Shown in pieces: positions 2,828 through 52,474 of a stretch of DNA of 64,000 nucleotides. Each line of letters begins with the position of its first letter. Position 1 is the stretch's first letter. The notes below the pieces were generated by a model. It saw only the letters and a program-made list of their open reading frames with translations. It had not been told where the DNA came from and ran no database searches. Position numbers and translations under genes: made by a program. The DNA is taken from NCBI GenBank assembly GCA_963842805.1, contig CAWJIA010000012.1:284623-348622 (forward strand), in the 5' to 3' direction. The stretch comes from an uncultured Chloroflexia bacterium. Its GTDB lineage: Bacteria > Chloroflexota > Dehalococcoidia > GIF9 > UBA5629.

Positions 2828-2950
2828 GCCTCTGGCAGTGGCATATTTTCCCAAGGAATCCCTCCCTCAGTATCGTCTGCGCTGAAGCGTTTCACTTCCG
2901 TGTTCGGGATGGGAACGGGTGGTGCCGCCTCGCTCTAACCACCAGAGGAC
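2828..2950 (-). rRNA. rrf: 5S ribosomal RNA, orphan (no 23S rRNA adjacent)
   Basis: The reverse complement reads ...CACCCGTTCCCATCCCGAACACGGAAGTGAAACGCTTCAGCGCAGACGATACTGAGGGAGGGA..., which matches the bacterial 5S consensus (CCGAACACGGAAGTTAAGC core). Terminal helix I pairs as CCUCUGG/CCAGAGG. It is not in the ORF track; the spurious ORF 2770..2964 overlaps it. Confidence 0.8.
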
Positions 2951-4224: not shown

Positions 4225-7200
4225 TCAGGTGACATCTTCAACGGCAACCGGGCTCTCGGAGACTTCAAGCAGGTTCTCCACCGGCTCCGAAAAGACGATG
4301 GGGCCATCATCCAGCAATAAATTGGACGGCTTGCCCAATCTCTGCGTAAGGGTACTGTTAGAAGGTATCAGCTTGCCGATAATTACGTTCTCTTTGAGAC
4401 CATGCAGCCTGTCGGTCTTGCCCCAAATGGCCGCTTCGGCCAGCACCCTGGTGGTTTCCTGGAAGGAAGCCGCCGCCAGCCAGCTATCGGTATTGAGCGA
4501 AGCGCGGGTGATACCCAGCAGCACGGGACGTGCCACCGCCTGGTCGCCTCCCTCAGCTTCCATCTTGGCATTGATATTTTCGAAGTCGAGCCTGTCGACC
4601 AGGTCGCCGATCAGCAGGTCGGTATCGCCCGAGAACTCCACCCTCACGCGGCGCAGCATCTGCCTGACGATGGTCTCAATATGTTTATCATTGATACTCA
4701 CGCCCTGCGAGCGGTATACCTTCTGTACCTCGCCGATCAGATAGTGCTGTACATCGTTGCGCCCGTTGATATGCAGGATATCCTGCGGGTCTTTTACGCC
4801 TTCAACCAGCTTGTCTCCGGCCCTTACGTAATCTCCCTGCCTGACCAGAACATGGCTGGTAACCGGCACTTCGTATTTGCGCTCGTCTTTATCTTCGTAG
4901 GTTATGATGACCTTACCTGCTTCCACCCTGGCCATACCGTCGACACGTGCGACCAGTGGATGGCTTTCTACGTCACCTTTAATAACGGCCTTGCCCGGCT
5001 GGGCAAGGACATCGCCACGCCTGACGAGTATATTATTCTCAGTGACTACTTTATATCCGGGCGGAATCTCGTGCTCTATGGGATAAGCTTCAACATGTGT
5101 GATGGTTATCTCACGGCGCTGCAAACTGCCGTCCTCGACCACTTCATTCATATTCACCGTTCCGTCGATCTCGGTCAGGACGGCCTTGCCCTTAGGCACC
5201 CTTGCTTCGAAAAGTTCTTCGACGCGGGGCAGACCCGTAGTGATATCTGCGCCCACCACACCACCGGTGTGGAATGTGCGCAATGTAAGCTGAGTACCGG
5301 GTTCACCGATGCTCTGCGCTGCTATAATACCGACGGCGGTCCCGATCTTGACCATCTCCGTCGATGAAAGGTCACGCCCGTAGCAATGCTGGCAGACACC
5401 CCGCTTGGAATTGCAGATCAGCGGCGACCTGACATTGACGGTCTTGAGCTGCGCCTGAAGGATCAGCTTAACTTTTTCCTCGTCGATCATCTCGTTGCGG
5501 GCGACGATGATTTCACCCGTCTGAGGATCCACTATATCTTTGGCTGCCAGGCGACCTTTCATACGTTCGTCAAAGGCCGGTAGCAAACCTTTTTCTTTCT
5601 CGTTCATTATGGCCGAGAATTCAAAGCCGTCACCGGAATATCCGCAATCCTCTTCCAGAATGATCAGCTCCTGGGCTACATCGATCAGGCGCCTGGTGAG
5701 GTAACCTGCATCGGATGTCCTCAAGGCTGTATCGGCCAGACCTTTGCGTGCCCCGTGGGTCGACATGAAATATTCCATGACCGAGAGGCCTTCACGGAAA
5801 CTTGCTTTGATGGGGAACGGGATGATGCGTCCCGAAGGATCAGTCATCAGGCCACGCATGCCGGCCATCTGCCTTATCTGGGAAATATTACCTTTGGCAC
5901 CCGAAAAAGCCATCATGTAAACGCCGCCGTACCTATCCAGCGATCTCTTTATCTCGTTTTCAATGTCGTTGGTCGCCTTAGTCCATACATCTATGGCCTG
6001 CGTTTCGTACTCTTCATCAGTGATCAGGCCCCTGTTGAACTGGTTTTGTAATATGGCGATATCCTCGTCACCCTTAGCAATGATCTTGGGCTTGGTCTTG
6101 GGCACTTCGATATCCCTGGCCGAGATGGTGGTGCCCGATTTGGTAGTATATTCGAAGCCGACGCGTTTTAGCTCGTCGAGCATGGTTACGGTCTTTTCGC
6201 GGCCGCACCAGCGGAAGCATTCGGATACCAGCCTGCGCAGGTCGCCCTTGCTGGTGGCGAAGTTGCAGAATCCATTATAAGGCTCGTGCTGGCGTAAATC
6301 GCAGGGTACAATCCTGTTGAAAATTATGCGGCCGACACTGGTCTTTATGATCCGGCTCTCCGGACCAGCCATGCGTAATTCCTCTTCCTGTTCGACGGTT
6401 TCCATGGTTTCCGCCGTTTCCGGGGTTGCTGGAATTTCGGCAGTTTCCGCGGCTTCGCTAACTTCTTCCATAACGGGCTGCTCTTCTTTTACCTCAGTAC
6501 CCTTGATGCGAACCATGATCTCTTCATGCAATGCAGGGTATGTGCTCTCGCCGGTGATATTAAACATTTCATAGGCAAGGATAGCTTCGGAGGGACTTCC
6601 AAACATCTTGGGTGCCCCGTCTGTAGCGGGCTTCATGTTGGTCAGGTAATAACAGCCCAGCACCATATCCAGGGTGGGAGTCATGACCGGCTCGCCGGAG
6701 CTCGGCAGCAGCATATTGTGCACGCTGAGCATCTGCTCACGCGCTTCACGTACAGCCGATCGGGAAAGCGGGACATGGACGGCCATCTGGTCACCGTCGA
6801 AGTCGGCATTGAACGCCGAGCAGACCAGCGGGTGAAGTTGTATGGCGCTACCCTCGATAAGTATCGGCTCAAAGGCCTGGATACTGAGCCTGTGAAGCGT
6901 TGGGGCGCGGTTCAGCATCACGGGGCGCTCCTTGATCACTTCAGCCAGTATATCCCACACCTCCAACCTGGCACGCTCGACCTGCCTGCGGGCGCTCTTT
7001 ATATTGTGCGCAAAGCCTTGCTCTATCAATCTACGCATTACGAAGGGCTTGAACAGCTCAAGCGCCATATGCTTGGGCAAACCGCACTGATGCAGCTTTA
7101 ATTCCGGCCCGACTACGATAACGGAACGTCCGCTATAGTCAACACGCTTACCCAGCAGGTTCTGACGGAAGCGGCCCTGCTTACCACGCAGCATATCCGA

Positions 7201-8337
7201 CAGCGATTTAAGCTTGTGAGTGCTAGCGGCGCTGGGCAGCCTGCCCCTCCTGCCGTTATCTATCAGGGCATCAACAGCTTCCTGGAGCATCCTTTTCTCA
7301 TTGCGAACAATAATCTCGGGCGCCCCCAGTTCCATCAATTTCTTCAGGCGGTTGTTGCGATTGATGACCCTGCGGTAAAGATCGTTAAGGTCGCTGGTGG
7401 CAAACCTTCCACCATCAAGCTGAACGATGGGGCGCAGCTCGGGCGGCAAGACCGGCAGAACTGTGAACACCATCCACTCCGGCTTATTGCCGCTGCGCCA
7501 GAACGCTTCTACGATCCGCAGCCGTTTGCTTAATTTCTTATGTTTCTGGCCTTCGCTGGACCTGATATCCTTTACCAGCTTCTGCCTTAATTCTTCCAGG
7601 TTCATGGACTTAAGGATATTCAATACAGCTTCCGCACCCATACCCACCTCAAAAGCATCGCCGTATTTTTCCTTATAATGCTGATACTCGCTCTCACTCA
7701 GGACTTGCAGCGGCAGCTTAGCGATTTCGGAGAGGTCGACTTTGTTATCGCTGTCAAGATCAGCCAGTTTCTCTTCCAAATCATGCTTTTTGTCGGCGTT
7801 TTTCTCTAAATCGGCTTTGCCGCTGGGGGCATCGGTCTCGACCTCGCCCAGCGCCTTCAAAAGCTCCTGTTTTTTGTTGGTCTGGTACTCCTCCAGCCTC
7901 TGCTTGCAGGCTTCGGCATTGACGGAGACTATCACGTACTGTGCAAAATAAAGCACACGTTCCAGGTTGCGCGGGGAAATATCCAGCAATAGAGCCAGCC
8001 TGCTCGGAACACCCTTGGCAAACCATATATGCGCTACCGGTGCCGCCAGAGTAATGTGCCCCATGCGTTCACGGCGGACCTTGGAATGTTCCACCGTAAC
8101 GCCGCATCTTTCGCAGGTCACGCCACGATAGCGGATCTTCTTGTACTTGCCGCAATAACACTCATAGTTTTTAACCGGACCAAATATTCTTTCGCAGAAC
8201 AGTCCGTCTTTCTCCGGCTTAAGGGTCCTGTAGTTTATGGTCTCAGGCTCGGTTACTTCACCGTAAGACCATTCTTCAATCTGTGTGGGCGATGCAAGGG
8301 ATATGCGGATTGCATTAAAATCGTTTATTTCAAACAC
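4225..8337 (-). CDS. rpoC: DNA-directed RNA polymerase subunit beta'
   Basis: 1370 aa. The N-terminal zinc-binding Cys cluster is present, as is the NADFDGD catalytic motif (seen as [15 protein letters not shown]). It lies immediately downstream of rpoB. Confidence 0.95.
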
Positions 8338-8346
8338 TTTTTACCC

Positions 8347-12069
<3,723 letters not shown>

Positions 12070-12369
12070 ATCTTCTCCTGTCGTGCAAATTCCCGATCGG
12101 TTGCGAACTGATTGCCAAATTAATTAACAATTGAAACGCGTGGATTTTTTATGCGGGAACTAATATTACTGTCAATAGGTTGGAATGGCATGATCGCAAA
12201 TTTTTAGTATATCAATAATTCTCTTTTTTGTCAAATGAAGAATCATTACTATTTAATACATTCGATTGGATTGGATTTTATCGGGGCAGACCGGTTTAAT
12301 ATGACAGCCACAGTATCCTATGTTGTATAATACCGTCAGCATATATATAAATGATAGCAGAATAATCAT

Positions 12370-13698
12370 ATGACAGTAAATAGGCTTGAACTATTTCCAC
12401 TGACGGTTCAGATAGGCAAGAAGAGTGATCATCTAACGATAGGCGGCTGCGACTGCACGGACCTGCTGAAAAAATACGGCTCGCCCCTTTACGTCTTCGA
12501 TGAGGCTACGATAAGAAGTATCTGCAGGGAATTTGTGGGTGAGTTCGGCTCACGCCACAAGAATTGCGTGGTAGCCTACGCGTCGAAAGCTTTTACCAGC
12601 AGGCCGCTGGCTAAAATATTAAAAGAAGAGGGATTGGGCATGGACACGGTATCCGGCGGAGAGATAAGCGTGGCCCAATCAGTTGATTTTCCGGCCGATA
12701 AGGTGTTTTTTCACGGCAATAATAAGAGCGAAAGCGAGCTCAAAATGGCCCTGGACTGGGGCTTAGGCCGCATCGTAGTAGACAATTTTTACGAGCTCGA
12801 GCTGCTTAACCGGCTGGCCATGGATAAATATGTAAGGGCGAACATTTTACTGCGGCTGAATCCCAGCGTGGACCCGCATACGCACCGTCATACGACTACA
12901 GGCATACTGGACAGTAAATTCGGCTTCCCCATCGGTACCGGCCAGGCCGAGGCAGCGGTCAAGTCTGCCATGTCCATGAAAAATATCTCGTTGAAGGGTC
13001 TGCACTTCCATCTGGGTTCCCCCATTGACGATACCGACCCTTACAGGCAGGGGATAGAAATTTTGCTCAAGTTCGCCGCTGAAATGAAATCACGCTATTC
13101 ATTTATTATGCATGACTTCAGCCCGGGCGGCGGGTTCGCTGTCAAGTACACTTGTGCATCTGAGATCCCACCGATCTCCACCTATGCCGAAACCATCACA
13201 GGACAACTGGATTTATGGACTTCTCGGCTGGGGCTGGCCAGGCCCAGGCTGATCATCGAACCGGGACGCAGCATCATAGCCAGAGCCGGGGTAGCCCTAT
13301 ATACGGTGGGCTCAATCAAGGAAATACCCAAAGTGCGGACCTATGTCTGCGTTGACGGGGGCATGGGGGATAATATCAGGCCGGCTTTATACGAGTCTAA
13401 ATATGAGGCTGTCCTAGCTAATAAGGTCACAGCTCGCCTGTCTAATAAAGTTACGATTGCCGGCAGGTATTGCGAATCAGGAGACCTGTTGATAAAAGAT
13501 ATAGATATGCCACAAACAGCTTCCGGCGATATAATAGCCATCCCTGTATGCGGCGCATACTGCATCCCTATGTCAAGCAACTACAATATGGTCCCGCACC
13601 CTGCTATCGCCATGCTCAAAGATGGAAAAGCCAGGATCATACGCAAAAGGCAGAAGTATGCGGACCTTATGAAATACGACGTCATGAGTAAAGCATAA
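12370..13698 (+). CDS. lysA: Diaminopimelate decarboxylase (PLP-dependent, Orn/DAP/Arg decarboxylase family 2)
   Basis: 442 aa. It has the fold-type III PLP enzyme layout: an N-terminal TIM-barrel region with conserved K (YASKAF) and a C-terminal beta domain (CESGD, EPGRSI motifs). Confidence 0.85.
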   Translation: MTVNRLELFPLTVQIGKKSDHLTIGGCDCTDLLKKYGSPLYVFDEATIRSICREFVGEFGSRHKNCVVAYASKAFTSRPLAKILKEEGLGMDTVSGGEISVAQSVDFPADKVFFHGNNKSESELKMALDWGLGRIVVDNFYELELLNRLAMDKYVRANILLRLNPSVDPHTHRHTTTGILDSKFGFPIGTGQAEAAVKSAMSMKNISLKGLHFHLGSPIDDTDPYRQGIEILLKFAAEMKSRYSFIMHDFSPGGGFAVKYTCASEIPPISTYAETITGQLDLWTSRLGLARPRLIIEPGRSIIARAGVALYTVGSIKEIPKVRTYVCVDGGMGDNIRPALYESKYEAVLANKVTARLSNKVTIAGRYCESGDLLIKDIDMPQTASGDIIAIPVCGAYCIPMSSNYNMVPHPAIAMLKDGKARIIRKRQKYADLMKYDVMSKA

Positions 13699-16156: not shown

Positions 16157-17569
16157 CTAGTTCCTGGTCTTAGAGCGGTTGCGAGTGGGCCCGCTGGTCT
16201 TCAAGTCGCCACGGTAGTCCGTCGCAATCATTTCAAAGACCAGGCTGATGCTGGGATCAACCATGCGGGAGCTAATACGCCGATCTATCTCATCGAGGTT
16301 AAAATAGGTTGTGATGACAGTGGCCAGCCGTGCATTGTAGCGGTAGTTGATCAACTGATAGAGCTTTTCTTGAGCCCACGGCGTAGCCGAATGTTCGCCG
16401 AAATCATCCAGTATCAAAACAGGTATCTTCTTAATTTTTTCAAAAAGGGCATCATAGGAAACGCGGCTTTCAGGACCGAAGGAAGACCTTAGATGGTCGA
16501 GCAGGTCCGGAACCACGATAAAAAGTACCTGCTTTCCCGATTCACGCAACTGGTTGGCAATGGCTGCCGCCAGATGCGTCTTGCCGCAGCCGTTCAGCCC
16601 CTGCAATACCAGCCAACCCTGAGGGGATTTGGCAAAATCGCTCGCATTGCTGAAGGCCTTCTCCAGGTTCTGCCGAACGTCCTCGGACACACTGAGCCCT
16701 TTGCAGTTAAAATTTTCGAACCTCATGTTTTTTAAGAGCTCAAGGTCCAGGCTATCAAGGCTTTGCAGGCTGGAAGACTCTTTCTTCAATATCAGCACCT
16801 TGCTGACCTCGGGATCATTGATATGCCCGGCATAATCATTATCAAACTCTTCGACGGCCATGCTGGTGGTAATCAGGGTAGGCAGCCTGCTGTTGAAGCG
16901 ATGCTCAAGCAAATGGTCAAGCTTGCTTTTGGACCAGTCCGTGGTACCGGAATAATTTAAATTATCCAGGATGAGCAGTTGACTATCCTTAATCTGCTCA
17001 AAAAGCTCATCGTACTCAATCTCGCTGTTGGGATTAAAAGCCGATCTCAGGTGGTCGAGTAACTCGGAGACGGTTATATAGAATGCCGGATAGCCCTGAT
17101 TTATGCGGAAGTTGGCTACTGCACAGGCCATATGGGTTTTACCGCTGCCGACCGGCCCGACCAAAACAATCCATCCCTGCGGGTTTTCGGCAAACTTATG
17201 TATCTCATCCAGTGCAAGCTGGAAAAGCTTCTGAGAGACCGGTGAATTACTGCGCCCGGTAGGCAGAAGATTATCGAAGGTCAGCTTGGAAAGATTCCCC
17301 AGGTTGCTTAGGGCTTGAAGCCGGGAGGCGCGCTTATTGGCGGATTCCTGCCTGGCGCAAACGCAGGGTATCAGACGCCCGTAGTCAGGTTCGCCTGAAG
17401 GCATCAAAGGATGGATGAACCTGGTCCCGTGGCATTGGGGGCACTCGCCCTGTTTTTCAGTGCCTGCGGCCGGTGTGTCAGGACTATCGCTGGACCATGT
17501 GTCCGTATTTTCCCCTGATGTACCTGTCGGGATCTCTTTCTTTCCGAGAATCTCCGAGATGTTTTCCAT
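16157..17569 (-). CDS. Helicase-loader-like protein with N-terminal Cys4 zinc ribbon and two tandem DnaC/DnaI-type AAA+ modules
   Basis: Module 1 has Walker A GPVGSGKTH and a Walker B-like LLILDNL. Module 2 has Walker A GLNGCGKTH and Walker B VLILDDFG. The N-terminal ribbon is CPQCHG...CVCAR. The annotated start overlaps the upstream DnaD-like gene by 86 nt, so the real start may be internal. Confidence 0.6.
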   Translation of the reverse strand: MENISEILGKKEIPTGTSGENTDTWSSDSPDTPAAGTEKQGECPQCHGTRFIHPLMPSGEPDYGRLIPCVCARQESANKRASRLQALSNLGNLSKLTFDNLLPTGRSNSPVSQKLFQLALDEIHKFAENPQGWIVLVGPVGSGKTHMACAVANFRINQGYPAFYITVSELLDHLRSAFNPNSEIEYDELFEQIKDSQLLILDNLNYSGTTDWSKSKLDHLLEHRFNSRLPTLITTSMAVEEFDNDYAGHINDPEVSKVLILKKESSSLQSLDSLDLELLKNMRFENFNCKGLSVSEDVRQNLEKAFSNASDFAKSPQGWLVLQGLNGCGKTHLAAAIANQLRESGKQVLFIVVPDLLDHLRSSFGPESRVSYDALFEKIKKIPVLILDDFGEHSATPWAQEKLYQLINYRYNARLATVITTYFNLDEIDRRISSRMVDPSISLVFEMIATDYRGDLKTSGPTRNRSKTRN

Positions 17570-18225: not shown

Positions 18226-19617
18226 CTATGTGACGGCGCCGACTTCCACGATCATGTTATCGAATTTTGTCATTTCCTGTATGAACCTCAACGGTACCTC
18301 ACCCGTGGGTCCGTTGCGGTTCTTGGCGATTAAAATGTGTGCAATCCCTTTGGGATATGGCTCCTGGTCACCATATTCCCGCTGCCAGTCCGCCTCGGTG
18401 GGATAAATCTTGTCCCAGCGGTGTATGAACATGACGACGTCGGCATCCTGCTCGATGCTGCCGCTGTCCCTCAGGTCGGATAGCTGGGGCTTCACCTGCT
18501 GCTTTAGCCTCTTGCCCTCCTGGCGGTGCTCGATGTTGCGGCTTAACTGAGACAAAGCCAGAACTGGGGCATCGATCTCCCTGGCAAGGGCTTTGAGCGA
18601 TTGAGTGATCTCGGTAATCTCCTGCACGCGGTTGTCATTCCTGGAATCGCCGCGCACCAGCTGTATATAGTCGAGGATCACCATGTCCACATTACGCCTG
18701 AGATGCAGCCTTTTGGCCTTGCTGCGGATTTCGCTGATACGCATATTGGGCGTGTCGTCGATATATATTGAAGTATCGGCTAGCCGGGGGATAATATCAC
18801 GGTGCAGCAGCTTCTCTTCCAGGTCGGAAAACCTTCCCTTGCGGAAATGCTGCGATTCGATATTGGCCTCGCTGGAGAGCATCCTCTGTATAATTTCACG
18901 GCGTGACATTTCCAGGCTGAAGATAGCGATACAAGCTTTCTGATTGATAGCCGCATTGCGGGCTATATTCAAAGCTAAACTGGTCTTGCCGATGCTGGTC
19001 CTGGCCGCCAGTATAACCAACTCGGACCGCTGAAGCCCGCCCAGGGCATTGTCTATGGCGTTAAACCCGGTCCTCAAGCTCTGCATATCTTTTTCGTAGG
19101 GGGTCTTGCCCGCCTCTTCGAAATAGGTGTTTAAGGCATCCTGAATGGGCACGAATTCGCCTCGGCCCTGCTTGTTCCTGAGCTTAAAAATGATGTCCTC
19201 GCACCTCGTCAAAGCGAGGTCGACATCCGGATCGGCTTTATATCCTATCGATTCAATCTGACCGGCCGCGCTTATCAGGCGCCGCATAGTCGAGAGCCTG
19301 AATACGATCTGAGCGTAGTGCTTCACATGCAGGGAGGTCGGCACTATGGAAACGAGGTGGCTCAGATAAGAAGCTCCTCCGATCTCATCGAGCTTGCCAT
19401 GGCGCACCAGTTCCTGTGCTACCGTTATCTGGTTGATGGCCTCGTCGCGCAGGGAGAGGTTGTGGCAGGCGCTATAAACGAGCTGGTTTTGTTCGCTGAA
19501 AAAGTCCTCGGTGCCAATGATGGTATCGATCTCCGGGATCGCTTCGCTGTCTATGAGAAGCGATCCCAGGACTGCTTCTTCAGCATCCAGATCATAAGGA
19601 GGAAGGGTCTCTTTCAT
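18226..19617 (-). CDS. dnaB: Replicative DNA helicase (DnaB family)
   Basis: 463 aa with an N-terminal DnaB domain, Walker A ARTSIGKTSLALN and RecA-like H1-H4 motifs. It lies downstream of rplI, as in many bacteria. Confidence 0.9.
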   Translation of the reverse strand: MKETLPPYDLDAEEAVLGSLLIDSEAIPEIDTIIGTEDFFSEQNQLVYSACHNLSLRDEAINQITVAQELVRHGKLDEIGGASYLSHLVSIVPTSLHVKHYAQIVFRLSTMRRLISAAGQIESIGYKADPDVDLALTRCEDIIFKLRNKQGRGEFVPIQDALNTYFEEAGKTPYEKDMQSLRTGFNAIDNALGGLQRSELVILAARTSIGKTSLALNIARNAAINQKACIAIFSLEMSRREIIQRMLSSEANIESQHFRKGRFSDLEEKLLHRDIIPRLADTSIYIDDTPNMRISEIRSKAKRLHLRRNVDMVILDYIQLVRGDSRNDNRVQEITEITQSLKALAREIDAPVLALSQLSRNIEHRQEGKRLKQQVKPQLSDLRDSGSIEQDADVVMFIHRWDKIYPTEADWQREYGDQEPYPKGIAHILIAKNRNGPTGEVPLRFIQEMTKFDNMIVEVGAVT

Positions 19618-47448: not shown

Positions 47449-47883
47449 ATGGTAAACAAAAATGCGCTGGAAGCTCCCTGCGGCATTCACTGCGGCCTGT
47501 GCCCGCTGCATCTAGCAATTACGGACGAGGCCTTAAGGAAACGCCTTGCCGAGCGGTTGAATATGCCGCCCGACAAGGTGGTCTGCCCGGGCTGCCGGGA
47601 GATCGACGGTTTCTGCCCCGTAATCTCGGAGCAATGCGCCACCTGGCTGTGCGTAAAGAAAAAGGGAGTCGAGTTCTGCTGCGAGTGTGCCGAATTCCCC
47701 TGCGTTAAGCTTGCACCCTGCGCCGATAAAGCATCGCTGCGCCCGCACAATATCAAGGTCTATAGCCTGACACTCAGAAAGAATAAAGGGGCTTACGAGT
47801 GGAGCAAGGCCATCGAGGAAATCTATAATCTTTACTATAAGGGCGAGATGGTTATCGGCCATGGCCCCGTACTAAAAAAATAA
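47449..47883 (+). CDS. Cysteine-rich protein (DUF3795-like), paralogue of 27035..27274
   Basis: 144 aa with 15 Cys. Its N-terminal CGIHCGLC matches the CGIACEKC of the other copy, and downstream it has a CPGC plus CCEC pattern. Confidence 0.5.
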   Translation: MVNKNALEAPCGIHCGLCPLHLAITDEALRKRLAERLNMPPDKVVCPGCREIDGFCPVISEQCATWLCVKKKGVEFCCECAEFPCVKLAPCADKASLRPHNIKVYSLTLRKNKGAYEWSKAIEEIYNLYYKGEMVIGHGPVLKK

Positions 47884-47891
47884 TTTCTTTT

Positions 47892-49514
47892 TTATCCCCA
47901 GAGATCATCAAGATTGTCCGTCTTGCGCGGGCTATCGCCCGATGACGACGGGCCGAGTTCCTTATAGGAATCAGCCGAGCCGTATTCCCTGACCCTAACC
48001 ACCACCGGCATGGGTAGAGCGTGGCCGAAGATGAGGGCTTGCTGCTTCGACTCAAGCTTGGACAGAACCGCTTTAAGCTCGCTTTTACCCGATACGCCGG
48101 TCAGCACCGTATCCACGTCCTTTTCATTATCCAGCAGGCAGGTAATCTTGGTGCCAAGCTGCGACATCACCTCTTCATCGATGCCGCTGGGCCGCTGATC
48201 GATGACCAGCATGGTCACGTTGTACTTGCGCATCTCACGGGCGATCTTGCCGAAGATGGTCTGCGAAGAGATCTCGGGATTGAGGAACCTGTGTGCCTCT
48301 TCGATGGTTATCACAAGCTGATCCGGCTTTCTGCTGTCGGCCGAGGTTGCGATATCCACCATCTCCCTGTAGAGGTTGTAGATTCGACGGGTAAGCAGGT
48401 TGGCCACCAGCACATAGGCAGCTATATCGTCATAGCCGCCGAACTGAAGAACCACGCTCTTGCCGTGGCTGATGTAGTCCAGCATGCTCTTGACGGTATC
48501 CTCCGGCGCGTGCGGCACCAGAAATTTGAAGCGCTGCAGCATCGTGAGCCCGCGCTGCAGGTTCTTCCAGGTGCTTTCAGCAATATTGTGCTTGCCGGCA
48601 AATTCCTTGTCGCCGCCTTCAAATAAATCCAGGGTTGACTGCAGCCATTTATCGTCCCCGAAATACCTGGCCAACTCGTAGACCGCCTGCACAGCAAGGT
48701 CGGTGAGGTTGAGCACGCTACGGAGCATTTGCATGTCTTCGGGTTCGATCTCATCGTAGCCTATCTTGACGACGAAATCGGATTTTACCTTCCTGCGCTG
48801 GTCGTATTTCTCGTCCAGGGAAAAAACCGCCACCTTGCCCGGGAAAAGCTGCTTCAAACCCTTGACTTTGTGGTCCTTCTCGCTGGTGCCCTCCCAGCCG
48901 TATTCATTGTGCATATCAAAGATCAGGCTGGTGGTCCGGCTTTTCTGCAGCATGCCGATCAATAAAAGCCGTGTAAGGAAGGTCTTGCCGGTGCCGCTCT
49001 TGCCGAAAACGCCGTTGGACCTCTTGACCAGCTCCTCCATATCCAGGCAAATGCGGGTCTCCATATCCAGCGGAGTGCCGACATAGAACCGCTGTTTATC
49101 CTCCTTACCGAAAACCATTTCAACGTCGGACTGCGAGGCCAGCTCCACCCCGGCGAAGTGAGGCGGCACCGTTTTGGCGGGTTGCGGGCCTTCAGTAGCC
49201 CCGGCTATGCCGCTGATGGTAAGCATGGGTAAAACGCTCAGTTTGCCGTAGGTGGTCGTCCCGGATACTACTTTGGCTATGAAAGGGTCGGATATATCGG
49301 GGGGCATGACCATAGCGCGGGGGTCCACCGCCTCCAGGCTGATATCCGTAATCATGCCGAAGAAGCGCTTCTTTTCGCCCTGTATCGCCACATAGCGCCC
49401 TACCACTACGTCCTCTACCGATCTCGCTGGGTCCAGCTTCACATGCACGCCCTGCGTCAGGGACCCGTAGATTACCGTGCCCAGCCTTAAATTCCCTTTC
49501 TCGTTTTCTGTCAT
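47892..49514 (-). CDS. HerA-family FtsK/HerA-superfamily ATPase (DUF87)
   Basis: The N-terminus is HAS-barrel-like (RLGTVIYG...GRYVAIQG). Walker A is GKSGTGKT and Walker B is HerA-type (VITIEEAHRF). Length 540 aa. Confidence 0.75.
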   Translation of the reverse strand: MTENEKGNLRLGTVIYGSLTQGVHVKLDPARSVEDVVVGRYVAIQGEKKRFFGMITDISLEAVDPRAMVMPPDISDPFIAKVVSGTTTYGKLSVLPMLTISGIAGATEGPQPAKTVPPHFAGVELASQSDVEMVFGKEDKQRFYVGTPLDMETRICLDMEELVKRSNGVFGKSGTGKTFLTRLLLIGMLQKSRTTSLIFDMHNEYGWEGTSEKDHKVKGLKQLFPGKVAVFSLDEKYDQRRKVKSDFVVKIGYDEIEPEDMQMLRSVLNLTDLAVQAVYELARYFGDDKWLQSTLDLFEGGDKEFAGKHNIAESTWKNLQRGLTMLQRFKFLVPHAPEDTVKSMLDYISHGKSVVLQFGGYDDIAAYVLVANLLTRRIYNLYREMVDIATSADSRKPDQLVITIEEAHRFLNPEISSQTIFGKIAREMRKYNVTMLVIDQRPSGIDEEVMSQLGTKITCLLDNEKDVDTVLTGVSGKSELKAVLSKLESKQQALIFGHALPMPVVVRVREYGSADSYKELGPSSSGDSPRKTDNLDDLWG

Positions 49515-50104
49515 GGCTGTAGCCTCTTCAAAATGGAGTCCAGCCTCCTTATATCGTTGCTCAGGGTCCAGGCCAGCTCCTTGCCAGCCTTAATTAAGAA
49601 TTCCTGCGGCTCGGTTTGCATAAGGCTGGCATAGCGCAGAAAGGCGGCGATGACCTCATCCGGTGCAACGGTCGACCGGCTTTCTATTATCAAATTCAGA
49701 AAATTCAAAGACTGCGTGAATTGCTTCACTTCGGCTGGACTGCAGGCATAGACGAAGGAATAAATCGATGCCGGGGATGGCGGCAGGTACTGGCGAATGG
49801 CCTTACTCTGGATATGGCCGACAACCAGGGCCTTGAAATCGGAGCACAGCAATTTAGCCAGCTGCGGGTTGGCCTTAAAAACATCGGCCTCCGAAGTGGC
49901 TGCTTTTCCGCGGGCCGCAATCCGCCTGCCCGGCTCTATGCTGTGCGTAGCTGAGACGTACACGATGCCGTATATCTGACAGTCTTTGCCTTTCGTCTTG
50001 ACCATACTGCCCAGCGCCGGAACGTTATTCAGGTCGTAACATTCGGCCAGGAATTCCGAATTGCTGGTTTCGATTACCTCGGCGATCTTCTGTTCTACAC
50101 CCAT
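49511..50104 (-). CDS. Hypothetical protein, translationally coupled between NurA-like and HerA genes
   Basis: 197 aa with no recognisable motif. It overlaps the upstream gene by 10 nt and the downstream gene by 4 nt. Confidence 0.4.
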   Translation of the reverse strand: MGVEQKIAEVIETSNSEFLAECYDLNNVPALGSMVKTKGKDCQIYGIVYVSATHSIEPGRRIAARGKAATSEADVFKANPQLAKLLCSDFKALVVGHIQSKAIRQYLPPSPASIYSFVYACSPAEVKQFTQSLNFLNLIIESRSTVAPDEVIAAFLRYASLMQTEPQEFLIKAGKELAWTLSNDIRRLDSILKRLQP

Positions 50105-51339
50105 TTTATCTTCTTGCTCCTTTGCTTCAAGGACTGTTGGACTGTCAAACTGCCCTCCTGCATGACCCGGTCTACCAGGTCCCAGAACTGCTCACGGTCG
50201 GCGCCCGTGACCACCGCCTGTTCGTGAGCTTCGCTCAGCGAAACCGGGTAACCGAAGCCCTTATGGCACTGGTCTACTATCACTGCATGTGCAAGATCGA
50301 GCAGCTCATTGTTATCAGCTACCCAGAGCGGGACCTCCACCCTGGCCACCTCTTCATCCAGTTTAATATAGAAAAAACAGACTTGATGGACACCGTATCT
50401 CTCAATTATCGACGACCGGCTGCTGAATACCGCCGACCTCTCGCCTTCGGACAGCATCCCGGCGAAGACAGCCCTATCTAGCGGCCCGCCCACCACATCG
50501 CATTCCCGGCCCTCGAATTTACCCTTGCAGTGTTTGTCGCAGTCCACAGGATCGTAAGGGCATACTTGCAGCCGCAGCACATTTACTACGTCGGTGCTGC
50601 GGGGGAAACTGATATAGCTGGCGATAGCCGCCTTCTTTTTCCTGTTCAACTCGTAAAAACGATCGAACTGTTTGAGCCAACCCTCATCCAACAACTGCTG
50701 CACGATAAAATCGTCGTAGCGCTGTCCGACCAGGCCCCACATGATTAATGAGCCGTCGACCAGCCCGACTACGGGCAAATTAGTCTCACTGCCGCATACC
50801 CGGTCGGCCAGGCTGCGGCATTCTTCTACCCCGCGTTTTATGCCCAGCAGCGGCCCCTCGATAAGGGCCTGTTTACCGTCATTTGACCTGATGGTCTGCA
50901 TCTCATCGCCGAAGTAAAGGGTTGGCAGGCTCAACAGCTCAGCATCCGGCTTACTGCCGTATTGCAGTTCCACCAGCCCGATATTCAGCAGGAAGAGCCG
51001 TGTGGAATGATGTCGGTCCACGTCGATGTGCGACCCATCGCTGGCAACGACCATGAAATTTACGGGGCATGGCACCGCAGCCTTGTGCAGACTCATATCC
51101 TCTTTCAGGCCGGCCACCAGCCAGGTAACCCTGGCATCCTCTATCTTCTTCTTTAGCCTGTCCTGGTGAGGCGGTATCGATTTTAAGGTAGTCAGTGCCA
51201 ACTCTAATTTTTGGGCGTAGTCAGACTGGTGCGACTTTAAATCCCCCGCCATAGCCTCGATCTGACTGTAGACCTGTGTGATATCAAGCGTCATGGTTGT
51301 TGGAAGCCTTAGTATAGCACGGCATCCATAGGCTAACAA
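50095..51339 (-). CDS. NurA-domain 5'-3' nuclease-like protein
   Basis: NurA-type motifs are present: VVASDGSHIDVD (DGS motif I), GLVDGSLIMWG (DGSL motif) and a C-terminal GYPVSLSEAH. It is paired with a HerA ATPase, as in archaeal and Deinococcus herA-nurA loci. Confidence 0.6.
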   Translation of the reverse strand: MLAYGCRAILRLPTTMTLDITQVYSQIEAMAGDLKSHQSDYAQKLELALTTLKSIPPHQDRLKKKIEDARVTWLVAGLKEDMSLHKAAVPCPVNFMVVASDGSHIDVDRHHSTRLFLLNIGLVELQYGSKPDAELLSLPTLYFGDEMQTIRSNDGKQALIEGPLLGIKRGVEECRSLADRVCGSETNLPVVGLVDGSLIMWGLVGQRYDDFIVQQLLDEGWLKQFDRFYELNRKKKAAIASYISFPRSTDVVNVLRLQVCPYDPVDCDKHCKGKFEGRECDVVGGPLDRAVFAGMLSEGERSAVFSSRSSIIERYGVHQVCFFYIKLDEEVARVEVPLWVADNNELLDLAHAVIVDQCHKGFGYPVSLSEAHEQAVVTGADREQFWDLVDRVMQEGSLTVQQSLKQRSKKIKWV

Positions 51340-51436: not shown

Positions 51437-52474
51437 ATGTCTATCGGCTATGTAAATGATGAAATCTACCTTCAGCATGATACCAATGACCATGTTGAAG
51501 GCAAAGACCGCCTGACCGCCATCAATACCATTCTAGAAAAGACCAAAATCAAAGACCAGCTTGCACCGATTGCTGCTCGCGCTGCCACCATAGAGGAAAT
51601 AGCCACCACGCACGACCGTGATTATATCCGGACGCTTAAAGCCGAGATAGACGGCGGGGGAGGCTGGCTTGACCCCGATACCTACGTTTCGCCTAACTCG
51701 TGGGAGCCGGCTCTCTTCGCAGCCGGAGGCTTAATGAACGCGGTTGACGGGGTAATGAATAAAAAATACAACAACGCCTTTGCGCTGGTGAGGCCGCCAG
51801 GTCACCATGCAACCCGGCAGCATCAGATGGGGTTTTGCCTTTTCAATAATGTTGCGGTTGCGGCCAGGTTTGCACTGGCCAACTATAATATCAAACGGGT
51901 GCTGATCGTCGATTTCGACGTTCATCACGGAAACGGCACACAGGACTCGTTCTACACCGATTCACAGGTACTATATTTTTCCACTCACGAATACCCCTGG
52001 TACCCATTCACCGGCCGTGCTGATGAGATCGGCGCCAGAGGAGGAGAAGGCTATAATGTCAACGTGCCGATGGAAGCCGATTCGGGAGACCGTGAGTATC
52101 TACGCGCCTTCAACGAAGTGCTGGTGCCTGTAGCCGAGCGCTACAACCCTGACCTGGTTCTGGTATCGGCGGGCTACGACGCCCACTGGAAGGACGATAT
52201 CTCCAACATCAACCTGACAACCACCGGCTTTGCACGGCTGGCTAAGATAGTCAAGGGCATATCGGATAAATGCTGTCCCAACAGGCTGGTATTTACGCTG
52301 GAAGGCGGCTATAACCGCGCCGCCCTGGCCTACTCAGTGGCGGCCACGTTCGAGGTCCTGATGGGCCACAGTGAAGTTATAGATCCCCTCGGCGAGCCTC
52401 CCATGGTCTTTTCATCTGGCGAGCTGGACAATTTCATCAAGATGGTGCGCCGCATCCACCAACTGCAGGACTAA
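51437..52474 (+). CDS. Histone deacetylase-family amidohydrolase (AcuC/HDAC class)
   Basis: PPGHHA and DFDVHHGNGTQ motifs with the metal ligands conserved. Length 345 aa. Confidence 0.85.
   Translation: MSIGYVNDEIYLQHDTNDHVEGKDRLTAINTILEKTKIKDQLAPIAARAATIEEIATTHDRDYIRTLKAEIDGGGGWLDPDTYVSPNSWEPALFAAGGLMNAVDGVMNKKYNNAFALVRPPGHHATRQHQMGFCLFNNVAVAARFALANYNIKRVLIVDFDVHHGNGTQDSFYTDSQVLYFSTHEYPWYPFTGRADEIGARGGEGYNVNVPMEADSGDREYLRAFNEVLVPVAERYNPDLVLVSAGYDAHWKDDISNINLTTTGFARLAKIVKGISDKCCPNRLVFTLEGGYNRAALAYSVAATFEVLMGHSEVIDPLGEPPMVFSSGELDNFIKMVRRIHQLQD

Follow-up and report, generated by a model that had tools for sequence, protein, structure and literature searches.

We analysed a stretch of 64,000 nucleotides (nt), below called the window, from an uncultured Chloroflexia bacterium (Dehalococcoidia in the GTDB lineage; assembly GCA_963842805.1, contig CAWJIA010000012.1, positions 284,623 to 348,622 of the forward strand). 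This work deals with three neighbouring minus-strand genes of the window, which encode a NurA-like nuclease, a middle protein and a HerA-like ATPase. The middle gene and its product are called X here ('Mid'). The nurA gene lies at positions 50095-51339, where the maximal open reading frame (ORF) encodes 414 amino acids (aa) from a TTG start. X (49511-50104) starts with ATG and encodes 197 aa, and herA (47892-49514) also starts with ATG and encodes 540 aa. The nurA and X genes overlap by 10 nt (50095-50104, ATGGGTGTAG); the TAG stop codon of nurA is inside X, whose start is ATG, and the junction reads ...AAAATGGGTGTAG. X and herA overlap by the 4 nt ATGA (49511-49514), which contain the stop codon of the former and the start codon of the latter, and this junction reads ...CCATGA. 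Both overlaps had been described in an earlier note on this DNA, and the coordinates and junctions agree with the ORF list and the sequence. A Shine-Dalgarno-like GGAG (50120-50117, minus strand) is located 12 nt 5' of the X start codon, and a similar GAGG (49526-49523, minus strand) 8 nt 5' of the herA start. The three genes are predicted to be translationally coupled. In related loci, the 4-nt overlap of X and herA recurs in 52 of 81 cases and a 1-nt overlap is found in nine more, and the 10-nt overlap of nurA and X recurs in 20 of 68. This recurrence, together with the purifying selection on the genes, indicates that the overlaps are not due to chance.

The length of 414 aa, which the earlier note had given for NurA, is probably too large. 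In most relatives NurA begins at the position of codon 16 of the maximal ORF. In addition, a promoter-like sequence TTGTTA-17-TATACT (51339-51311, minus strand), a weak match from a consensus scan, lies over the TTG codon in the intergenic region between the divergent nurA and HDAC-family genes. Because of these two observations, the start of NurA is probably the ATG at 51294, and the protein would consist of 399 aa. The position of the promoter-like match is consistent with this downstream ATG as the real start of nurA.

The first gene had been called NurA-like from its motifs, and the three of them (VVASDGSHID, GLVDGSL and GYPVSLSEAH) are present in the translation. The protein matches the Pfam family PF09376 with 77.7 bits (cutoff 21) and an E-value of 1.3e-21 at profile positions 3-254 of 254, that is, over the whole model. 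Residues D86, E158, D180 and Y349 (399-aa numbering), which belong to the two DGS motifs and to GYPxxLxxAH, are invariant in 24 aligned relatives. The assignment to the NurA family holds. In S. solfataricus NurA, the catalytic residues are D58, E116 and D133, and there is also a conserved Y298 (PMC3326311). The GYPxxLxxAH segment of the window protein aligns to residues 297-306 of S. solfataricus NurA (2ygk), and Y349 corresponds to Y298. By the order of the motifs rather than by structural alignment, D86, E158 and D180 would correspond to D58, E116 and D133. The NCBIfam equivalog model of Sulfolobus NurA was not matched, with a score of 12 bits against 400. Because of this, the window NurA is a distant member of the family rather than the orthologue of archaeal NurA. 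None of the solved NurA structures in the PDB was found at E<0.9 even with a profile, and just the C-terminal GYP motif of 2ygk was aligned at E 0.96.

The last gene encodes a HerA-like protein, as proposed previously. It matches Pfam PF01935 (DUF87/HerA central domain) with 111 bits (cutoff 23.2) and an E-value of 9.6e-32, and the HerA models of NCBIfam and PADLOC with E-values from 1e-22 to 2e-33. A phmmer search of the PDB returned HerA chains at 6.7e-18 to 3.5e-7, including 8wiv (6.7e-18) and 4d2i (1.5e-15). The Walker A motif GKSGTGKT occupies residues 171-178, and the Walker B segment VITIEEAH is found at 400-408, with IEEAH at 404-408. Both motifs are invariant across 68 sequences. The HAS-barrel at the N-terminus of HerA, which the earlier note had also suggested, is a putative one. 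Residues 1 to about 137 have a barrel-like sequence pattern, and the HerA orthologues of three distant loci (L087, L089 and L093) carry a HAS-barrel match, but the window protein itself scores 21.4 bits with the Pfam HAS-barrel model, below the cutoff of 25.2. D. radiodurans HerA was not among the phmmer matches of the window HerA at E≤1e-3. Judging by these comparisons, both NurA and HerA are distant from their characterised orthologues.

Protein X had been described as a protein without a recognisable family, and in direct searches this is what we saw. It gave no match in Pfam, NCBIfam or PADLOC at E≤1. In PHROGs a stretch of 22 residues matched a single family, itself of unknown function, at E 0.033, and sequence searches of the PDB, both with the single sequence and with a profile, returned noise alone. 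The first-pass search found 110 homologues, and all the named ones are called 'hypothetical protein' of Dehalococcoidia or Chloroflexota. However, several relatives with 54-59% identity carry a precomputed match to PF09378 (HAS-barrel). A distant relative, P0173, scores 29.9 bits with the Pfam HAS-barrel model, which has a cutoff of 25.2, and another one, P0217, scores 17.1 bits. The AlphaFold2 model of X, built from an alignment of 54 sequences, has a predicted local distance difference test score (pLDDT) of 92 and a predicted template modelling score (pTM) of 0.87. It contains a beta-barrel at residues ~6-120, into which a loop and a helix are inserted at 56-85, and five helices at 123-193, two short ones being followed by a three-helix C-terminal bundle (148-193). 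In a Foldseek search of the PDB with this model, HerA chains made up all 50 of the 50 matches listed (E 1.5e-6 to 1.8e-4), and the best of them include the N-termini of HerA from the SIR2-HerA, DUF4297-HerA and TdpAB systems. X has no P-loop. Because its model matches the HerA fold and a distant relative passes the Pfam cutoff, we conclude that X is, by its predicted fold, a free-standing version of the HAS-barrel with which HerA begins, and that a helical domain replaces the ATPase. Thus, contrary to the first impression, the family of X can be recognised from the predicted fold and from its distant relatives. The most conserved parts of the protein are the Arg-rich loop EPGRRxxARG (57-66), NPQL (79-82) and LPPxPA (107-112), and in the helical domain the most conserved element is FL[VI]xAGKE (169-176). 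The charge of X is near-neutral, with a family median isoelectric point (pI) of 6.1, and is not diagnostic of anything.

We estimated the size of the X family with an exhaustive profile search, which gave 1033 clusters (50% identity) at E≤1e-3, of which 713 reached E≤1e-10. Another profile search yielded close relatives alone. A scan with one genome per GTDB species found the family in at least 295 genomes. Nearly all named members belong to Chloroflexota, SAR202 included, and among 80 genomes listed, all were metagenome-assembled genomes (MAGs) of Dehalococcoidia/Chloroflexota except for one labelled 'delta proteobacterium'. The ratio of nonsynonymous to synonymous substitutions (dN/dS) against close relatives was 0.06-0.11 for X, 0.07-0.14 for NurA and 0.03-0.06 for HerA, and the full ranges were 0.06-0.15 for X and 0.05-0.14 for NurA. 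By these values, X evolves under purifying selection. The possibility that X is a pseudogene or a spurious ORF was dismissed on the basis of the dN/dS values, the 1033 clusters and the pLDDT of 92.

The linkage of the genes was determined by ORF calling and phmmer in a sample of 86 loci, 81 of which have sequence downstream of X. It turned out that herA is located 3' of X on the same strand in every one of these 81 loci, with gaps of at most 399 nt. In 68 loci nurA is found 5' of X and in the same orientation, and where the two do not overlap, 22-3049 nt lie between them. The earlier note had proposed a search for co-occurrence in other genomes, and by this result the middle gene is a genuine and conserved one, so far unannotated, which belongs with the HerA/NurA pair. 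In many Dehalococcoidales the operon is split on the nurA side by 0.2-3 kb of extra DNA while the overlap of X and herA is retained. The extra DNA between nurA and X (positions 4600-6000 in loci L001 and L002, and other loci) contains small ORFs without a Pfam match. Some of the distant Chloroflexota loci, with 28-33% identity, have a different arrangement. In L087 and L093 there are X and herA, with no nurA nearby. In L089 the order is nurA-X-LysR-herA, where X stays beside nurA and the LysR gene separates it from herA. Locus L090, from a Chloroflexota MAG (GCA_016191465.1, positions 4799-12648), contains nurA, X, an ABC ATPase, an ABC permease, herA, an Mre11-like phosphoesterase and a Rad50/SbcC-like gene, all in one direction, and is the sole locus of 93 with Mre11/Rad50 nearby. 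Thus, X is linked to both partners and is the hinge of the operon, because after such splits it keeps herA in some lineages and nurA in others.

The next question is whether the three genes serve repair or defence, which the earlier note had left open. The window is core chromosome and contains genes for a ClpB-like protein, rpoC, rpoB, Mfd, DnaB, the F1 alpha and beta subunits, SecDF, the CCA-adding enzyme and proBA. The neighbours that recur in relatives are HDAC, SecDF, SBP, RadC, the CCA enzyme and PriA, and the GC content across the module is unremarkable. The same note had taken the surroundings to be other than a classical DNA-repair operon. The flanking genes are conserved housekeeping genes, and the three genes read as an ordinary repair-type module plus X. 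Another explanation would be an anti-phage system of the HerA-plus-effector type (like SIR2-HerA or DUF4297-HerA), with NurA in the part of the nuclease effector and X in that of a sensor or adaptor. HerA does match the HerA models of PADLOC (best 2e-33) and the NCBIfam model 'anti-phage-associated HerA' at 1.8e-21, the latter with about the same strength as the models of repair HerA, and effectors of defence systems likewise dock on the HAS crown. However, the PADLOC run on the locus, which had been suggested as a check, recognised the generic HerA alone; no model matched NurA or X and no defence effector was seen. With X as the tblastn query, neither the 72,556 plasmids nor the 50,697 phages searched gave a match, and the viral fold search with X gave none at E≤1e-3. 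The synteny is that of conserved housekeeping DNA and not of a variable island, a single lineage carries the family in at least 295 species genomes, and in L090 it is linked to Mre11-Rad50. We therefore regard an anti-phage role as very improbable. The two readings, repair and defence, are not evenly balanced. Because of the synteny, the presence in hundreds of Chloroflexota species, the mre11-rad50 genes of L090, the lack of plasmid, phage and PADLOC signal for X and the lack of a PADLOC match for NurA, the locus is better read as a housekeeping module for DNA-end processing, passed on vertically, than as a defence island.

For DNA-end resection in archaea and some bacteria, HerA-NurA serves as the model helicase-nuclease. 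Effectors as different as NurA, SIR2, DUF4297 and TdpB all dock on the HAS-barrel crown of HerA, which is now known as their universal platform. In the known complex, the crown of the HerA hexamer carries a docked NurA dimer, and DNA reaches the nuclease by way of the ring (PMC3326311, PMC9960219). The HerA hexamer moves duplex DNA through its crown into NurA, which digests the strands, and the window pair most likely works in this way. Translational coupling to herA would mean that X is made in step with HerA. We propose that X joins the complex at the interface of the crown and NurA as a stoichiometric third subunit, where it would serve as an adaptor or a gate that controls how, or when, NurA engages HerA. 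We infer this position and this role from the predicted fold of X, which is that of the docking domain, from its coupling to herA and from its genetic linkage to NurA as well as HerA. On balance we lean, by a little, towards the view that the nurA-X-herA operon of the chromosome encodes a HerA-NurA end-processing machine with X as such a subunit. The locus is probably best described as an ordinary repair-type HerA-NurA module plus an undescribed HAS-barrel protein, which is probably its third subunit.

The arrangement was compared with known systems. In Deinococcus radiodurans (DR_0836/DR_0837; 7f6d, 7wrx), as in the window, nurA and herA are adjacent and co-oriented in a bacterium, HerA combines a HAS-barrel, a putative one in the window protein, with a RecA-like ATPase, and NurA has the D/E/D/Y set. 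The difference is that in the window a third conserved gene, for a stand-alone HAS-barrel, lies between nurA and herA, whereas the D. radiodurans complex is 6:2. The archaeal herA-mre11-rad50-nurA operon (Sulfolobus, Pyrococcus, Thermococcus; 4d2i, 2ygk, 9x1l) shares both enzyme families with the window and presumably the mechanism as well. The nurA-X-...-herA-mre11-rad50 order of L090 echoes this repair operon. The gene order in the window is different, Mre11/Rad50 were not detected in it, and the archaeal operon as described lacks a HAS-barrel gene. In the SIR2-HerA/Nezha (8j4u, 8sub), DUF4297-HerA (8ziq, 9c1m) and TdpAB (8wet) systems, the HAS-barrel crown of a HerA-family hexamer likewise docks a partner enzyme. 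In the window the partner is NurA and not SIR2 or DUF4297, and there is no defence-island context. In the F1/V1/A1 and the flagellar and type III secretion ATPases, the N-terminal beta-barrel crown is always fused to the ATPase, whereas X is a separate polypeptide with a helical domain. As far as we know, no HerA-effector anti-phage system has been described with a free HAS-barrel protein. Stand-alone HAS-barrel partners are not described in the full-text literature that we searched, whose coverage did not extend to the original definition of the HAS-barrel in 2004.

Several observations weigh against X as a third subunit of a repair machine. The characterised HerA-NurA complexes (Sulfolobus, Deinococcus, Thermococcus) are, to our knowledge, 6:2 assemblies with no third subunit. 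We likewise know of only two-component HerA-NurA systems (Sulfolobus, Pyrococcus, Thermococcus, Deinococcus, Thermus), and the same is true of all characterised HerA assemblies. A phmmer search with Mre11 and Rad50 of L090 found neither in the 64-kb window nor in 92 of the 93 loci at E≤1e-8. The X profile was aligned by hhalign to the N-terminus of its own HerA in the correct register, but with a marginal E-value of 0.03 and over just 29 columns. For this reason, the origin of X as a recent duplicate of the 5' end of its own herA was dismissed. X is an old and diverged HAS-barrel and not a recent copy.

The relatives of X that stand apart from the operon also belong here. A search seeded with an outlying protein, P0256, revealed an orphan clade of 230-250 aa proteins that are 34-41% identical to the Dehalococcoidia type. 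Within 7-8 kb on either side of four of its members (L092 7001-7696, L094 3584-4300, L095 8001-8723 and L096 8001-8753), we found no HerA or NurA. L094 comes from a MAG named Chthonomonadaceae (Armatimonadota). One orphan gene, on a circular contig of 4.86 Mb, adjoins trpD/trpC and a HEAT-repeat gene. Thus, the fold of X can work away from the nurA-X-herA operon, and it is not confined to the operon or, apparently, to Chloroflexota. It is conceivable that X is independent of HerA-NurA and that its co-transcription reflects a shared pathway or genomic inertia. In such a case X could be, for example, a small beta-barrel nucleic-acid binder acting on DNA ends or single-stranded DNA. The orphan members, which are far from HerA/NurA in larger genomes, including the MAG labelled as Armatimonadota, speak for this, and so does the conserved Arg-rich loop EPGRRxxARG in the barrel. 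HAS-barrels have also been classed with small DNA-binding beta-barrels (bioRxiv 10.1101/2025.10.09.681413). However, gene order and overlaps are kept across Chloroflexota down to 28-33% identity. X resembles specifically the N-terminal domain of HerA and not generic OB or SH3 barrels, and its near-neutral charge (median pI 6.1) argues against a simple DNA binder. Taken together, we consider an independent function of X distinctly unlikely, and a place of X in the HerA-NurA complex is still the reading we prefer.

To assess co-evolution, we used pairwise distances in 46 trios. The distances of X correlated with those of NurA with r 0.92 (partial 0.70) and with those of HerA with r 0.84 (partial 0.22). 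The correlation of X with its partners speaks for a shared complex but is suggestive only, since X and NurA also evolve at similar rates, which may by itself explain the mirror-tree signal. The tighter tracking of NurA than of HerA (partial r 0.70 versus 0.22) would also fit a role of X as a negative regulator or decoy. A free HAS-barrel could mimic the crown and keep the NurA dimer, or a capped HerA, inactive. A DNA end or a damage signal would lift this block, and the chromosome would be guarded from unscheduled resection. Indeed, the predicted fold of X is that of the domain on which NurA docks, X stays beside nurA where herA has been displaced (L089, L090), and restraint of nuclease-helicase machines is common. 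On the other hand, the ATGA coupling to herA in 52 of the 81 loci suggests co-assembly with HerA and not titration of NurA. In X itself no signal-sensing domain is evident, since the C-terminal 75 aa form a plain helical bundle, and the HerA-NurA systems offer no experimental precedent for such a decoy. A regulator of this kind seems to us unlikely.

Returning to X as a subunit of the machine, a more specific arrangement can be imagined. X could form an ATPase-less HAS-barrel ring, or six peripheral copies, on the crown of HerA. The resulting Chloroflexota assembly would have three tiers, HerA-X-NurA, in which X, and not HerA, presents the docking surface and gates the entry of DNA into NurA. 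We put this forward tentatively and with more doubt than belief. If it is true, HerA-NurA end resection would have an additional, novel architecture, and the family of ~1,000 clusters, orphan members included, would represent a class of detachable 'crown' modules of ring translocases that has so far gone unrecognised. A free-standing docking domain that is conserved and coupled across a bacterial class, including the abundant SAR202 and Dehalococcoidales, suggests an undescribed layer of assembly or control. The role of X would then show how the docking of partners on HerA rings is regulated. If X can be dispensed with, the locus amounts to one more HerA-NurA pair of bacteria.

Two groups of sequences in the X family required a separate explanation. 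The first is a NurA-X fusion, P0202 (372 aa; L091 3450-5367), which combines the C-terminus of NurA with a HAS-barrel and could be taken as Rosetta-stone evidence; it was dismissed as such. Its contig comes from a long-read assembly of 2x coverage and carries a split nurA and a herA cut to 67 aa. Because of this low coverage and the broken neighbouring genes, the fusion is almost certainly an artefact of an assembly frameshift. The second group consists of L038, from an 'uncultured delta proteobacterium' MAG, and P0318, from a 'Deltaproteobacteria bacterium'. Both are Dehalococcoidales-type relatives of X with 48-51% identity, and the full nurA-X-herA trio was confirmed in L038. These MAGs are probably mis-binned or mislabelled.

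The immediate flanks of the operon are a DUF3795 gene (47449-47883, plus strand) and an HDAC-family gene (51437-52474, plus strand), both of which were identified as the earlier note had claimed. Elsewhere in the window, a 470-aa protein encoded on the minus strand at 16157-17569 contains two IstB/DnaC-like AAA+ modules in tandem. Its gene is located 0.65 kb downstream of the DnaB gene (18226-19617, minus strand), and the protein could be a duplicated helicase-loader-like protein. No 23S or 16S rRNA genes and no tRNA genes were detected in the window. A 5S rRNA gene (2830-2946, minus strand; 93 bits with the Rfam model) stands alone and appears to be unlinked from the other rRNA genes.

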